NCBI GenBank assembly: GCA_963799845.1
Contig: CAWCYI010000006.1
Location: 960,001-1,024,000 of the forward strand
Length of the DNA stretch: 64,000 bases
Reading direction: 5' to 3'
Source of the DNA: an uncultured Nitrososphaerota archaeon
GTDB taxonomy: Archaea > Thermoproteota > Nitrososphaeria > Nitrososphaerales > CADDZS01
Shown: in pieces, positions 1 through 5,700 of the stretch
Numbering within the stretch: position 1 is the first letter of the stretch
How the letters are laid out: each line of letters opens with the position of its first letter
The notes under the pieces: generated by a model
Databases searched by the model: none
Told to the model about the DNA's origin: nothing
What the model saw: the letters and a program-made list of their open reading frames with translations, nothing else
Position numbers and translations under genes: made by a program

Positions 1-912
1 GATGTGCTTCAGGTAGACTCTTTTGACAGCAGAATCCGTCTTGGCTTTCACGGCTCCACTCACTGCGCATGTTAGAGCGTACTTCAATATGACGTCGCCG
101 TGCTTTACGTGTTCGTGGTGGGACTCACGCTCTCCACTGTTGTCAGCACCTGGAACGACTCCGGCATACGAGCAGAGATGTTTCTTTGTGGGGAACCTTG
201 AAGCGTCTCCTATTCTTGCCTTGATGGCTACTGCGGTGAAAGCATTGATGCCAGGGTGACTGAACAGAAGCTGGCAGTCTTCGTCTGAGGCTGCCATCTT
301 TGCAATCTCGGTCTCAACCTCCGTATGCTGGGTTGCATAGAACTTGAGCTCCGAAAGATGCAATGCGAGAGCCAGCCTGTCTTGCTTTGGAAGCTCTATC
401 TCTCCGAGCTTTTGAAGACCTCCGTTACTGAACACGTCAGAGAATTCTGAGAACTCGCTCTGGACCATGTTTCTCTCCAGTAGAGCTTGGATCTGGTTCT
501 TTACTCTCGATATCTTTGCGCCAATCTCTATCTGTTGGGTCACAAGAAAGCGCATGTCTTCTATGTACTGTGAGGGAACGTAGCACCTTCTCAAGTAGCC
601 CAGTGCATCCTCCTTGACGATACGCTCGCAGTCTCTCTTATCGGTTTTCACAGATGCTTTCTTCTCTGGTGGCGCAACCATGTGAATCACGTGCTGGTTT
701 GATGCGAAAGAAGAAATCATTCTCGTGACCGCCTTTCCAGTTGTGCTAGATTCGATGACAAATACAGATTTGTCCGGAATCTTTGCTAGCATCTCAGAGA
801 CTCCTGCCCTGCTCGTCTTGAAGACGAAGGATTGTATGGGTGACTCTTCTCCGTCCGCGAAGACCTGCGTGGTGCAGCTCTTCTTATGTGCGTCTATTCC
901 GACTCTCGTCAT
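1..912 (-). CDS. IS110-family DEDD recombinase/transposase, runs off the window start
   Basis: Manual translation from ATG at 912: MTRVGIDAHKK...FVIESS...VKTDKRD...PGINAFTA...RFPTKKHLCSYAGVVPGADNSG. These are RuvC-like DEDD and Transposase_20 motifs. Absent from the ORF track because there is no stop in the window. Confidence 0.93.
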   Translation of the reverse strand, partial: MTRVGIDAHKKSCTTQVFADGEESPIQSFVFKTSRAGVSEMLAKIPDKSVFVIESSTTGKAVTRMISSFASNQHVIHMVAPPEKKASVKTDKRDCERIVKEDALGYLRRCYVPSQYIEDMRFLVTQQIEIGAKISRVKNQIQALLERNMVQSEFSEFSDVFSNGGLQKLGEIELPKQDRLALALHLSELKFYATQHTEVETEIAKMAASDEDCQLLFSHPGINAFTAVAIKARIGDASRFPTKKHLCSYAGVVPGADNSGERESHHEHVKHGDVILKYALTCAVSGAVKAKTDSAVKRVYLKHI

Positions 913-953
913 TGGTTTCGATTCATACTCCTATTGTTTGACTGGTTGTTTGC

Positions 954-1106
954 GTCATGGATCCCAGACCGACAATCTCCCGTACGTCCATTATGGACAA
1001 GCGGGCCGGTCGTTTCGATCATCGTCAATTGTGACGATGACTGTGCAGCCATGCTGGGGAACATGCACAAGGCACAAGAGATTCGAAGGCTGCGGGGATC
1101 CATGAC
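954..1106 (-). ncRNA. Putative bridge RNA of IS110 element 1
   Basis: 12-bp closing inverted repeat GTCATGGATCCC (954-965) / GGGATCCATGAC (1095-1106). Two internal stems (GCAGCC/GGCTGC and GACCG/CCGGTC) have loops matching the junction at 1160-1171. Confidence 0.7.
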
Positions 1107-1328
1107 CACAACTCCAGCTGTCTCTTGCTGGAGGGGAGAGGCTAATCTAAGATTTTCATGCCCGCTGGGGATTCGCACCTAATTAGGTACCAGTACCAAA
1201 GAATCGTTTTATGGCAAGGAAATAGCCGAAATGGTAAAAATAATATGAGGTTCCACGTGGGGATTTGACTCGGATAACTTAGCTTAGTGAATCGATGTAT
1301 ATTTGTCGTTACTTATCTGAAACCTCAC

Positions 1329-1385
1329 GTGCGGGGGTCCCACATTCCGCGCCCGGAATCTTATCCTTTTGTGATTATTTACTAG
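1329..1385. repeat. REP-like repeat unit GTGCGGGGGTCCCACATT...TTTACTAG (left flank of IS110 element 2)
   Basis: The same GTGCGGGGGTCCCACAT motif recurs at ~2587 and ~8013, each next to a TTTACTAG(TAAA) palindrome. Confidence 0.8.
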
Positions 1386-1433
1386 GTGACATGATCGACA
1401 GAGTTAACGGAAGGTAAAGCCACAGCCAAGCAC

Positions 1434-2414
1434 ATGTACGCAGCTATAGATCTTCATCAAAGAACCGTCCAGCTGAGTACTCAAGGACGAAAGAGGACAG
1501 ATTGCAGGTGAGACGAAAATTGGCAAGGATGCAAGGAGCATACTCGAGTTTCTCGATGGCACTGACGCCAGAGTAGTCATGGAATCGGGCTACAACCATG
1601 AACACATCTACGATCTCCTCAAAGAAGAGGGATACGATGTTAAGGTAGCTCATCCGCTGTTGGTTAAGGCGATCGCCTACGCAAAGGTGAAAAATGACAA
1701 GGTGGACGCAAGGATGCTCGCAGATTTATTGAGACTAGACATGATTCCAGAGTGCTACATTCCAAGGAAAGAGACGAGAGAACTAAGAGACCTCGCAAGG
1801 AGGAGGCACTATTTCGTCTCGACAAGAACCACGTTCAAAAACAAAATCCATGCTGAGCTCAGCAGGAGATGGATTGATTACAGCAAAACAGATCTCTTCA
1901 CGCAGGTCGGAAGAGACCATCTAAAATCCCTTCATATTGCAGCAGTAGATGACTATCTCGACTCGATAGAGTTCCTAGATGCGAAAATAAAGGAGCTTGA
2001 CAGCCAAATCAAGGAACAGGCTCTTCAAGACAAGTACGCAAAACTACTTGTGACGGTGCCTGGAATATCTTACTACGGAGCTCTGCTAATCTCGAGCGAG
2101 ATTGCAGGACATCAATAGATTCCCAGATGCCGAACACTTGTGCTCGTACGCAAAATTAGCTCCTGGAACACACCAATCGGGAGAGACTCAATTCCAGAAA
2201 CCAGATCGAAAAGGAAATCGCATGCTCAACTGGATAATGATCCAGTGCGCACACATCCACGTCCTAAACTGCAATTCATCTATAACCAGGCATTACAACA
2301 AAATCAAGGAGACAAAAGGAGCAAAGATCGCTATCGTCGCAGCGGCGAGAAAGCTCGACGTGCGCAATCTACATGATGCTGAAGGAAGAAAGAGCCTTCA
2401 GGCTGGACGGCTAA
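1434..2414 (+). CDS. IS110-family recombinase/transposase, frameshifted (3 breaks)
   Basis: MYAAIDLHQR / VVMES / VKNDKVDA / VPGISYYGA..SEI / RFPDAEHLCSYAKLAP..HQSG / AIVAAARKL / AIYMMLKEERAF. Joins ORFs 1579..2118 and 2102..2470. Confidence 0.9.
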
Positions 2415-2422
2415 ACCATAGA

Positions 2423-2567
2423 CTGGGCTCGAGAATTTACTGCATCGCCAGGATGCGTTTACTAGGATGAGCCAAAGGCAATAAGCGAAAGCCACAATGT
2501 TCCATTTGGGAACGAATGGGAGTATGCTCGTCCAGCATAGGAATGGATATTAGGTGATAGAGCCCAG
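2423..2567 (+). ncRNA. Putative bridge (seek) RNA of IS110 element 2
   Basis: Closing stem CTGGGCTC/GAGCCCAG. Loop GAATTTACT-[GCATC hairpin]-TTTACTAG matches both target flanks. ATGGGAG (2516-2522) matches the element right end. Confidence 0.8.
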
Positions 2568-2579
2568 CCGACATGGGAG

Positions 2580-2649
2580 TAAATTCGTGCGGGGGTCCCA
2601 CATTGGGCACACGGAATTATCCGTTCTTTGGAATTTACTAGTAAAATTG
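2580..2649. repeat. REP-like repeat unit (right flank of IS110 element 2)
   Basis: TAAATTCGTGCGGGGGTCCCACATT...GGAATTATCC...TTTACTAGTAAAATTG, a tandem homologue of 1329-1385. Confidence 0.8.
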
Positions 2650-2727
2650 TGTGTGACAATCCCATCGACCGACCTTCCCTGGCCCTTATCAATTAGAGCT
2701 GGAAAAGCTAATCATATTCAGACAAAG

Positions 2728-5700
2728 TCACCAACGTATTGGAGTCTGCGAAGGACTCGGCTGAGGTAATCCTAACCGCCTGATGAACGAATCCCATCTT
2801 CGATCCTCCCGCACGGGAGCAAACAACGGTAATAATCTAAGGTCCAAAAGGTAGCTTCCATGCTGCGTAAAAAGGGAGTGATCTTCCCGCGCCTCTTCGA
2901 GAAGACGGAAGCCTTCGTCTTTCTTTCCTAGCGAAAAGTATACCTGCGCTATCTTCATTTTAGAGATATATTCGCCCTTGGAGCTCTCTTCGAGCTCTCT
3001 GAGAATTTTACTAGCTTCCTCTCTTTGACCCACAAACCCTAGTGCAATAGCCAGATCGGCCTTCCATATCGGATCACCCCCAGACATTGTCACCGCCTTT
3101 CGAAATTCACTGATCCCTTCCTCCGTTCTGGAATCACAATAGTACGCCCAGCCAAGAGCGCTGTGATTAGGTGGATATTCAGGATCTACCTTTAGTGCAG
3201 TTTCAAGCTGTTCCACGGCCTCGCCAGGTCTACCAGCGTAAAAAGGAACTGCGGCCAGATTCAAGTTTCCAGGGCGAAGGAGCGGATCAAGTTCGACTGC
3301 CAACTTTATCTGTTCTCGGGCCTCTTCAAATCTTGTAAGAAAACCGAGCAACAGTCCATACCACATATGGGCTTTAGCGTAGCTTGGCTTGAGTTCGAGA
3401 GCGATTTTGTATTCAGCTTCAGATTCCTTCCACTTGCCTTCGTAATCGTTGAATACATCTGCGAGTGTAGTATGCGGCTCAGCCAGCCTTGGATCTATTT
3501 CTATGGATTTTAGCGCGTATTGTTTAGCCTTCGGAAATGAATCTTCCGGTTTCATCCAGGTGCGAGAACCATAAAGTATGTAGCAATCTGCTAGTCCGGA
3601 ATAAGCTAGTGCATATTTGGAGTCCAACTTGGCTGCCTCCTCGAAGTATCTTACCCCTTTATCCGTACTTTCTCTTGTTCTCTCCTCCCAGAAGTAACGT
3701 CCTCTTAGGTAGAGCATGTAGGCTTGTGTGTTTCCAGTTGCCCTCATTTCTAGATCCCTTTTTTCGACTGATAGCAACTGGACCGTCAAAGCCTGGGAGA
3801 CGTTCATGGCAATCTCTTTCTGTACTCCGAAGACGCTATCCAGCTTCCTATCATAGTCCTGGGACCACAGATGTTCATCGCTACGGGTGTCAATCAGTTG
3901 CACAGTTATTCTTAAGTTGTCGGAGTCTTTTCTCACAGTGCCTTCAAGAATACTTCCAACGTGCAGCTCCTCAGAAATTTCTTCGATATTCTTGCTGGTA
4001 GTCTTGTAGCGCATTATGGAAGTCCGAGAGATCACTTTGAGCCCTCGGATCTTGGACAGATTGGATATTATTTCATCAGTCATACCATCAGCAAAATACT
4101 CATCCCCAGAATCCGGACTGATGTTTGCAAATGGCAGGACTGCAACACGGTGAATATCAAGCTGGTCGCCGGGTTTCTTCGAATCCGGTCTGCTCTCTTC
4201 CACGGGGAGCTCTATCTTGTAAACATTTTCTTGGGCTTGGAGCCCAATTTTCTTCATGAACGCGACAAATCTCGGGTCTTTTTTCATGCCACTAAACCAT
4301 GGCCACCAGTTGAGATAGGGAATCGTGTTTGACCTTTCCTGGTAGGCTTTCTCAAGGTAAGTGAACCCTTCATCGATTCTTCCGGCACCGAAGAGAGCAT
4401 AGGCTATTAGCCCACTGTCAACATAAGAGGTGTTGGAAAGCGCAATTAGCTCTTGTACTACTTCACTTGCTTCGTCGTGCTTCCCAGAGAATCCAAGCAA
4501 ACAAGCGAGATGAGCCCTGCAATTTGGATCTTCATGGGATATTTCGACAGACTTGCGAACTGCTCTGATGGCTTCGTCTATCCGTGATGCCATGTAATAT
4601 GCCCAGCCAAGCCAAACATATGCAAAGGCATAATCTTGATTTTCTTCGATGACCTTTTCGAATTGCCTAATGGCCTCGCTGATTTTGCCATTCGCATATA
4701 ATACCTCACCCACGTTAACCCCGATTACACGTGACAGCGGGTCAAGCTCATGAGCACGCGCGATATTCGTGTATGCTTCGTCTAGTCTGCCTTGTGAACG
4801 AAGGATGAGTGATAGCCAGTGGTAAGCTGTCGCGTAGCTGGGATTAAGCTCGATAGCCCGTTTCAACTCTATCTCCCCCTCGTTCCACTTGAAATCATAA
4901 TTTGAGAGCGCTATTCCGAAGGAAGCGTGTGGTTCGGCTAATCGAGGATCCAACGAAATAGCCTGCAACGAAAACTCCTTGACTCGCAGAAACGCTTCTT
5001 TGGGAGCCAGCCATAGATAGTCGGCATAGATGATGTAGCAATCTGCCAGCGCTCCATACGCTAGCCCAAATCTAGCGTCAAGCCCAATCGCTTTTTCGAA
5101 GTATTTTACGGCCTTGTCGACTGCTTCTCTGCTTCTCTCGTTGAGGTAGTATCTTCCCTTCAGGAACAATGTGTAAGCTTCATCACTCTTCGTGGGAAGG
5201 TTATTTTCGATTTCCTTTTTTTCTTTTGAAAAGAGGTTGATCTCAAGAGCGGCAGCTACTCGCTGGGCAATCTCGCTCTGAATAGCGAAAATGTCTTCGA
5301 GCTCTTTGTCGTAGCTTTGATTCCAAAGATGTACGTCACTAATCGAATCAATGAGCTGTGTTGTAATTCTTAATTTGTTGCCCGATTTCCTCACACTCCC
5401 TTCCAGGATTTTTCCCACGTTGAGCTCTTTTCCTATTTCCGTTGCAGTTTTCTTCGAATTTTTGAACTTCATCGCAGAAGTTCTGGAAATTACGATCAGG
5501 TTTGGAATTTTTGACACCGAGGAGATCATTTCCTCGGTCATGCCGTCAGCGAAGTACTCGTCATTGGGATCCTGACTCATGTTCGCGAAGGGGAGGACTG
5601 CGATCCTATTGCTGTCGATTTTTCCCTTTGGCTCTAATCCTCTTTCATCCCAAGGGAGATCGATCTTGTACACCTCAATCGGGAGAATCTACATTCTTGA

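Follow-up and report, generated by a model that had tools for sequence, protein, structure and literature searches.

A probable bridge RNA upstream of the recombinase gene of an IS110-family insertion sequence from a Nitrososphaerota archaeon

The window analysed here, 64,000 nucleotides from an uncultured Nitrososphaerota archaeon (C6:960001-1024000 of genome G000; positions without a contig name are window positions), begins inside a recombinase gene. The noncoding sequence upstream of this gene raises the question whether it specifies a bridge RNA, whose guides would tell where an insertion sequence ends and where it inserts. A first-pass annotation, made from the letters alone, had proposed that it does and had deduced from the guides the far end of the element, which lies outside the window. 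The strings it named (flank, core, element start, stems, and guides) are all present at their places on the minus strand (Table 1), so that the observation is confirmed, and its interpretation is supported by the results below. We consider it about 90% probable that positions 954-1106 of the minus strand, with a leader from 1164, are the bridge RNA of a 1,523-bp IS110-family insertion sequence.

Table 1. Features of the insertion sequence inside the window
Feature	Position	Strand	Basis
Recombinase gene, first 304 codons	1-912	minus	start codon at 912; PF01548, PF02371, NF033542
Predicted bridge RNA core (closing stem, target-binding loop, linker hairpin, donor-binding loop)	954-1106	minus	fold, covariation, covariance model
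Closing stem, 12 bp, GTCATGGATCCC with GGGATCCATGAC	1106-1095 with 965-954	minus	
Donor-binding loop (loop 2)	967-1011	minus	guide/end matches
Loop 2 outer stem, GACCG with CGGTC	1011-1007 with 971-967	minus	
Loop 2 5' guide, GCCCGCT (GCCCG-CU)	1006-1000	minus	
Loop 2 hairpin	999-985	minus	
Loop 2 3' guide, ACGGGAG (ACGGG-AG)	983-977	minus	
Loop 2 handshake base, A	976	minus	
Linker hairpin between the loops	1018-1041	minus	fold; alignment of relatives
Target-binding loop (loop 1)	1045-1093	minus	covariation with flanks
Loop 1 outer stem, GCAGCC with GGCTGC	1093-1088 with 1050-1045	minus	
Loop 1 5' guide, CGAATCTCT (as RNA CGAAUCU-CU)	1085-1077	minus	
Loop 1 small hairpin	1076-1062	minus	
Loop 1 3' guide, TCCCCAG (UCCCC-AG)	1060-1054	minus	
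Loop 1 handshake base, C	1053	minus	
5' stem-loop, CTCCAGC / GCTGGAG, preceding the closing stem	1112-1133	minus	fold of 913-1175
Element terminus CGGGCA, then subterminal inverted repeat TGAAAATCTT (1158-1149)	1149-1164	minus	junction reading, relatives
Core dinucleotide AG (CT on the plus strand)	1165-1166	minus	found at both junctions
Target flank at the RNA-bearing end, CGAATCCCC	1167-1175	minus	junctions of genomic copies

The element, its far end and its genomic copies

The insertion sequence, to whose 1,523 bp the shared 2-nt core is added, lies on the minus strand of the window and its genes read leftward off the window. When the contig was read further, the recombinase frame was found to stop at C6:959683, giving a protein of 409 aa. 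The part encoded inside the window matches PF01548 (E 3.7e-09) and PF02371 (E 1.7e-16), and the full protein reaches 174.6 bits with the NCBIfam model NF033542 'IS110 family RNA-guided transposase' (cut-off 140). From its sequence the protein is predicted to be a DEDD RuvC-like recombinase with an IS110 Tnp domain; the acidic residues D7, E54, D94, and D102 are conserved and the motif G[VL]VPxAxN[ST]G is retained. The left end of the element, which bears the RNA, is 252 nt long and the right end about 41 nt. The partner of the subterminal repeat TGAAAATCTT, AAGATTTTCA, is situated just inside the far end and thus off the window.

As stated above, the far end had been predicted before it was seen: according to the guides it should read ...ACGGG-AG. 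Exactly this sequence is present on the contig at C6:959646-959640 (window -354 to -360), the element ending at C6:959640, 360 bases past the window start, and the contig at window -350 to -370 reads ...TTTTCACGGG-AG-ACACTCGGAC. The flank beyond this end had been predicted as AG-AGATTCG, which was borne out in part: the window copy has AG-ACACTCG, in which five of the seven non-core bases agree and two are off.

A BLAST search revealed three further copies in the genome that are 99.5-99.7% identical, so that there are four insertions in all (copies A to D, copy A being that of the window). The junctions of the other copies read CGAATCCCC before AG...AG before CGATTCGGAC, CGAATTCCC with AGATTTGCAC, and TGAATCCCC with AAACTCGGAC; in the near flank, copy C (CGAATTCCC) and copy D (TGAATCCCC) each show one change relative to CGAATCCCC. 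The right flanks of these three copies (CGATTCG, AGATTTG, and AAACTCG) match the predicted AGATTCG at six, six, and five of the seven bases, respectively. The consensus of the right flanks is the guide-encoded AGATTCG, with a perfect match in none of the four copies.

The guides ideally encode the palindromic target CGAATC-CCCAGA-GATTCG, as the first-pass annotation had it, but the actual insertion site differs from this palindrome. Over the whole genome the ideal 18-mer has no site with fewer than two mismatches. The two deviating bases in the far flank of the window copy and the genome's lack of a perfect target count against the reading as a bridge RNA and temper the fit. The four empty sites, as reconstructed, are spanned by open frames of 91-147 aa, which are either real genes or chance frames. 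An unoccupied site at C6:925965, 1.4 kb away from copy B, is one of the two sites that come closest to the ideal target (two mismatches).

CGAATCCCCAG, the near target half with the core, also occurs as T-loop and T-stem in tRNA-like 3' ends. Three tRNA-like sites read CGAATCCCCAGAGGCCCG (C4:489563, C4:530556, and C6:1746406), one such site sitting inside a predicted tRNA-Lys (C4:489471-489581), and a fourth, C4:1453171, is one more base off (CTAATCCCCAGAGGCCCG). No insertion was found at any of these four sites. The 18 nt to the left of copy A (1176-1193) duplicate the sequence to the left of the C6:1746406 site. ARAGORN called only 9 tRNAs in the genome with introns disallowed and 35 with introns allowed, 32 of the latter being intron-bearing and some implausibly long; these counts fit an archaeon with intron-rich tRNA genes, and many of the calls may be false.

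A second, unrelated IS110-family element, oppositely oriented, was found 200 bp from the first, at 1378-2589 on the plus strand. Its recombinase is broken up over two frames (1579-2118 and 2102-2470), and the first ~56 profile positions are missing. Copies of this element, 82-85% identical, are situated at C6:903700-904905 and C4:1954607-1957762 (interrupted by about 1.9 kb), and this break recurs in them near residue 203-207 (tblastn).

Structure of the upstream region and its conservation

A closing stem of 12 bp with two loops inside it, each loop consisting of guide, hairpin, and guide, had been part of the original proposal and was reproduced when 954-1106 was folded. The minimum free energy (MFE) is -69.3 kcal/mol, compared with -46.4 on average for shuffled sequences (sd 4.16; z -5.50), and none of 200 shuffles was as low; the helices of the closing stem and of both loops are all recovered in this fold. 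For 913-1175 as a whole the z value is -3.87. [quoted passage not shown] The linker hairpin is restricted to the window element and its two closest relatives (L005 and L017), other relatives having a short linker; in L005 and L017 its sequence is changed and its pairing retained. A search with Rfam 15 over window 1-4000 gave no match at E ≤ 1, hence no curated family covers the bridge RNA.

In a set of 5.8 billion proteins, 173 relatives of the recombinase were found at E ≤ 0.001, the closest named ones coming from Nitrososphaerota and Thaumarchaeota MAGs. The relatives, recovered from metagenome and MAG contigs, gave 92 homologous loci (12 from genomes and 80 from metagenomes). The upstream alignment and the guide counts are based on the 47 loci that include the gene start and 200 nt or more of sequence before it, and the structure alignment (A2) consists of 42 distinct homologue sequences.

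With the structure imposed, these 42 homologues were 93.7% paired, whereas sliding the partners by 1-3 columns lowered this to 31-41%. At 21 of the 34 pairs changes occur on both sides, and none of 500 shuffles reached any of five measures. RNAalifold, run on the same homologues with no structure given, recovered the closing stem, both helices of loop 1, and the hairpin of loop 2; of the 35 pairs it predicted, 21 are compensatory. For the outer stem of the donor loop RNAalifold favours the register CGAC/GTCG, the MFE register being GACCG/CGGTC. The latter is backed, by eye, by the variants GACCA/TGGTC and GGCCA/TGGCC, which the alignment misplaces; both registers are possible.

G-U pairs are common, occurring for example in 23, 35, and 42 of the 42 sequences at three pairs, and the scores of a covariance model, 113-139 bits on the forward strand, drop to 23-30 bits when the reverse strand is taken at these places. 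Because G-U pairs are frequent and the scores of the reverse strand are far lower, the folded molecule is read as an RNA of the gene-sense strand. The same findings bear on an alternative without any RNA, in which the matches between guides and junctions are due to palindromes at the level of the DNA, that is to cruciform or hairpin targets and ends. Both the ideal target and the site of copy B (GTCCGAATC-CCCAGC-GATTCGGAC) are hairpin-like, and the two donor guides are able to pair with each other. On the other strand, however, many of the retained G-U pairs would be A-C mismatches and the model scores far lower, and the guide segments are situated in loops 100-190 nt away from the junctions that they match. 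We consider DNA palindromes an extremely unlikely explanation.

Searching the genome with the covariance model gave exactly four places, which are the four copies; in the window the model hits precisely 954-1106 with 124.5 bits. Among 93 loci searched, 64 have a plus-strand match upstream of the gene. Seventeen of these matched loci were absent from model building, and they include relatives of ~30% identity and ISAtu7. The ~30%-identical relatives (L071, L074-L076, and L078) show the same layout. A survey of the phylum with the model (R1), in which the filters were stricter and each species was represented by one genome, gave no hit in 150 other sampled genomes and is therefore poor evidence of absence.

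The sequence occurs in soil DNA metagenome runs and, with small shares, in peat metatranscriptomes. One metatranscriptome contig of 169 nt covers 936-1104 with no differences and is a weak hint of transcription of the bridge RNA; ends and strand are unreadable from contigs, and DNA carry-over is possible. Another contig from an RNA library covers 493-690, within the recombinase gene. When the contigs of two DNA and two RNA runs were compared with the whole element, no joints for a circle or an empty site were seen, the loose contig ends at the element being the flanks of the other genomic copies. No promoter was found. A TATA-like box, TTTAATAT, is situated in the far end of the element, 30 nt from its end; as a promoter reading across the circle junction it was rejected, being not conserved in the relatives.

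Guides, flanks and element ends

All four guides terminate in the core or its complement (CU, AG, CU, and AG). In loop 1, the gene-sense strand of the far flank is the pairing partner of the 5' guide, and the antisense strand of the near flank that of the 3' guide; the last five bases of the flank CGAATCCCC recur, together with the core, in this 3' guide. In loop 2, the 5' guide is the reverse complement of the core and the element start, and the 3' guide is identical to the far end and the core.

Nearly all elements start with AG then CGGG.ATGAAAATCT and finish with GATTTTCA.GGG then AG, and the host DNA outside varies; a few deviate at the termini, e.g. with TG then GGTC, with AG then CTGTC, or with an end in AA. 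On average the 3' target guide has 4.02 of 7 identities with its own near flank versus 1.95 with the flanks of other loci (45 rows, the mis-anchored L050, L052, L055, L069, and L081 being retained). The reverse complement of the 5' target guide has 6.21 of 9 identities with its own far flank versus 2.72 (34 rows, with the mis-anchored L034 and L053 retained, and also L048, although its far flank is unfit). For neither target guide did any of 10,000 permutations attain the observed sum, a count that overstates independence since the homologues share kinship. As to the donor loop, the 3' guide equals the far end at all seven bases in 28 of 34 rows and shifts with the element end (ATGGGAG where the element ends in CATGGGAG, TCGGGAG where it ends in CTCGGGAG), and the 5' guide matches at six or seven of seven bases in 31 of 45 rows and at five or fewer in 14. 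Covariation of loops and flanks in the homologues, the test put forward in the first-pass annotation, is therefore clearly borne out for all four guides, target and donor alike. The arms of the subterminal repeat covary as well, both ends being altered together in L022, L061/L063, and L078; among the elements these repeats are 8-12 bp long, with 12 bp in L078.

Each of the matches is only 7-9 nt long, and short strings could resemble the flanks by chance. Such an origin is refuted already by the covariation; together with the blind prediction of the unseen end, which came true, and the permutations, of which none in 10,000 reached the observed values, this leaves chance a negligible probability.

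In IS621, according to the text of Hiraizumi et al. (2024; PMC11208158), the right-hand guides are followed directly on their 3' side by bases that, once strands have been exchanged, pair with the other DNA. The corresponding handshake bases are found here. In 31 of 34 rows the donor-loop base after GGGAG is identical to the base with which the far flank begins (A in 15, G in 12, and T in 4), and the target-loop base after the core is the first base of the element in all 40 readable rows (39 C/C and one T/T). By eye, both handshake bases are T in L071, L074-L076, and L078. The rule is broken in 3 of the 34 rows and, by eye, also in L071. It follows from the handshake bases that the right guides in the sense of IS621 are the 3' guides ending in AG.

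It was also considered whether the structure could merely be the 5' leader of the recombinase mRNA, concerned with translation or stability, with the protein recognising ends and target via the subterminal repeats. The structure does lie on the same strand as the gene, 42 nt upstream of the start codon, and the conserved 8-12-bp repeats could be protein sites. A leader, however, gives no cause for four unpaired segments to track host flanks and element ends in dozens of elements whose targets differ, and a donor-loop base that follows the target (31/34) would be needless in it. We therefore regard a mere leader as very unlikely and prefer the bridge RNA.

The transcribed bridge RNA would be bound by the recombinase. 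Loop 1 would read the insertion site, the 5' guide (7 bases + CU) pairing with one strand on one side of the core and the 3' guide (5 bases + AG) pairing with the opposite strand across the 2-nt core. Loop 2 would read in the same way the joined ends of the excised element, presumably a circular intermediate, and the handshake guide, a single base following each 3' guide, would match the partner DNA instead of its own. By analogy with IS621, a recombinase tetramer may hold target and donor on the two loops, cut after the CT core, and exchange strands, and the insertion would then proceed without target duplication beyond the shared core.

In the metagenome loci L039, L041, L044, L046, and L048 the junction cores are unlike, AG at the near and AA at the far junction. 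The 5' target guide of this sub-group ends in UU and its donor guide in AG, matching its junctions, as would be the case if the cores of target and donor had been unlike at insertion.

Comparison with IS621, IS1111 and ISAtu7

The comparison of polarity with IS621 and IS1111 is based on the text of the papers, not on their figures or sequences. As described there for IS621 (PMC11208160, PMC11208158), the RNA is located in a long noncoding end upstream of a gene for a predicted DEDD recombinase, the target loop precedes the donor loop, and every loop consists of stem, guide, stem-loop, and guide. Further common features are the 5' guide of 7 bases + CU, the 3' guide ending in AG, the 2-nt CT core, the handshake base after each 3' guide, and the 5' stem-loop. 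According to the same texts the left guides of IS621, LTG (bases 50-58) and LDG (123-130), stand 5' of the right guides and pair with the bottom strand, hence they carry top-strand sequence. Unlike in IS621, the flank and end sequence in RNA sense is in the 3' guides here, whereas it is in the 5' guides there. The element also differs from the IS621 of these texts in the length of the subterminal repeats (8-12 bp versus 2-3 bp) and in the 12-bp closing stem around both loops, and it differs in the recombinase itself, for whose 409 aa a phmmer search of the PDB sequences retrieved no chain at E ≤ 0.01.

This difference concerns the frame of the first-pass annotation. Its strings stand, but not its strand: in the terms used for IS621 the core reads CT and belongs to the strand that does not carry the genes, and left and right are swapped. 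Since it is the reverse complement that the 5' guides carry here, CT on the window's plus strand is the core in the mechanistic sense. The IS621-type frame is the plus strand with the target CGAATCT-CT-GGGGA and the donor GCCCG-CT-CCCGT, the RNA and the recombinase genes being on the 'bottom' strand. Because the CT core is antisense to the genes, the guide pairing with the gene-sense strand stands first in each loop.

For IS1111-family seekRNAs, the text of Siddiquee et al. (2024; PMC11187229) places the top-strand match 5' of the bottom-strand match, and it gives IS1111 elements subterminal inverted repeats of 7-17 bp and a noncoding region that is downstream, with few exceptions upstream. 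As in that description (e.g. of ISEc11), the top-strand-complementary segment of the window element is situated 5' of the bottom-strand-complementary one, the repeats TGAAAATCTT and AAGATTTTCA are inside the 7-17 bp range, and the recombinase has a motif of the form G-L/V-x-P----S/T-G. In contrast, the RNA is upstream here and downstream of the recombinase, in the long right end, there. With tblastn, ISEc11 aligned to the recombinase only over residues 198-335 (26.8% identity). ISEc21, an IS110-family element of the same text (PMC11187229), also has the noncoding region upstream and an RNA that matches both target strands, but its top-strand match is 3' of the bottom-strand match, opposite to the order found here.

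The closest named relative is ISAtu7 of Agrobacterium plasmids (28.7% identity over residues 1-354), bacterial in contrast to the archaeal window element. It likewise has a long left end (about 260 nt) and a short right end (about 27 nt), and model R1 matches its upstream region end to end (L097:748-870), although the match is weak (23.9 bits, E 0.005 in a search of 252 kb) with many pairs of the closing stem broken. Inspection by eye shows the left flank GTTGTTAT recurring on the 3' side of the first hairpin and the right end ATCCGTA recurring on the 3' side of the second. The fold of ISAtu7 itself is no better than those of shuffles (z -0.53), and its 5' target guide fits poorly with the flank of the one copy read. 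As the arrangement in ISAtu7 is, by eye, the same, the mixed features would not be peculiar to archaea.

Judged by its sequence features, the element appears to share most of the defining features of IS621 and to depart from it in polarity and in the short repeats, and from IS1111 in the position of the RNA. An upstream RNA as in IS621 and ISEc21 is combined with the strand polarity and subterminal repeats of IS1111. We tentatively suggest that the clade and its ~30%-identical relatives, as far as ISAtu7, could represent a third configuration with the RNA upstream and the polarity and long repeats of IS1111, a reading to which we give clearly less than even odds. As part of the same tentative reading, this configuration might be one step away from IS621, by a flip of the junction strand that the donor loop reads, and one step away from IS1111, by a shift of the junction across the RNA gene. 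Being a single step from each group, it could, if ancestral rather than a side branch, be the intermediate needed for the proposed 'translocation' of the bridge RNA between the ends.

The mechanism was described in 2024 and is thus already known; the element reveals no new one. Two loops of a bridge RNA suffice to predict the unseen end of an element and its preferred site, and reading the loops is a practical annotation rule for IS110-family elements. The relatives add natural sets of guides, targets, and donors, 34 rows with both junctions and 45 with one, mostly from archaeal bins and unnamed metagenome contigs, and the handshake guide gains support from natural variation. The one point that specialists might not expect is that the position of the RNA and the polarity of the guides are uncoupled, since the text of the two founding papers treats both as linked. 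This uncoupling bears on how the layouts of IS110 and IS1111 evolved from one another. It also aids the choice and design of bridge recombinases, because the orientation of the insertion relative to the cargo follows from the polarity.
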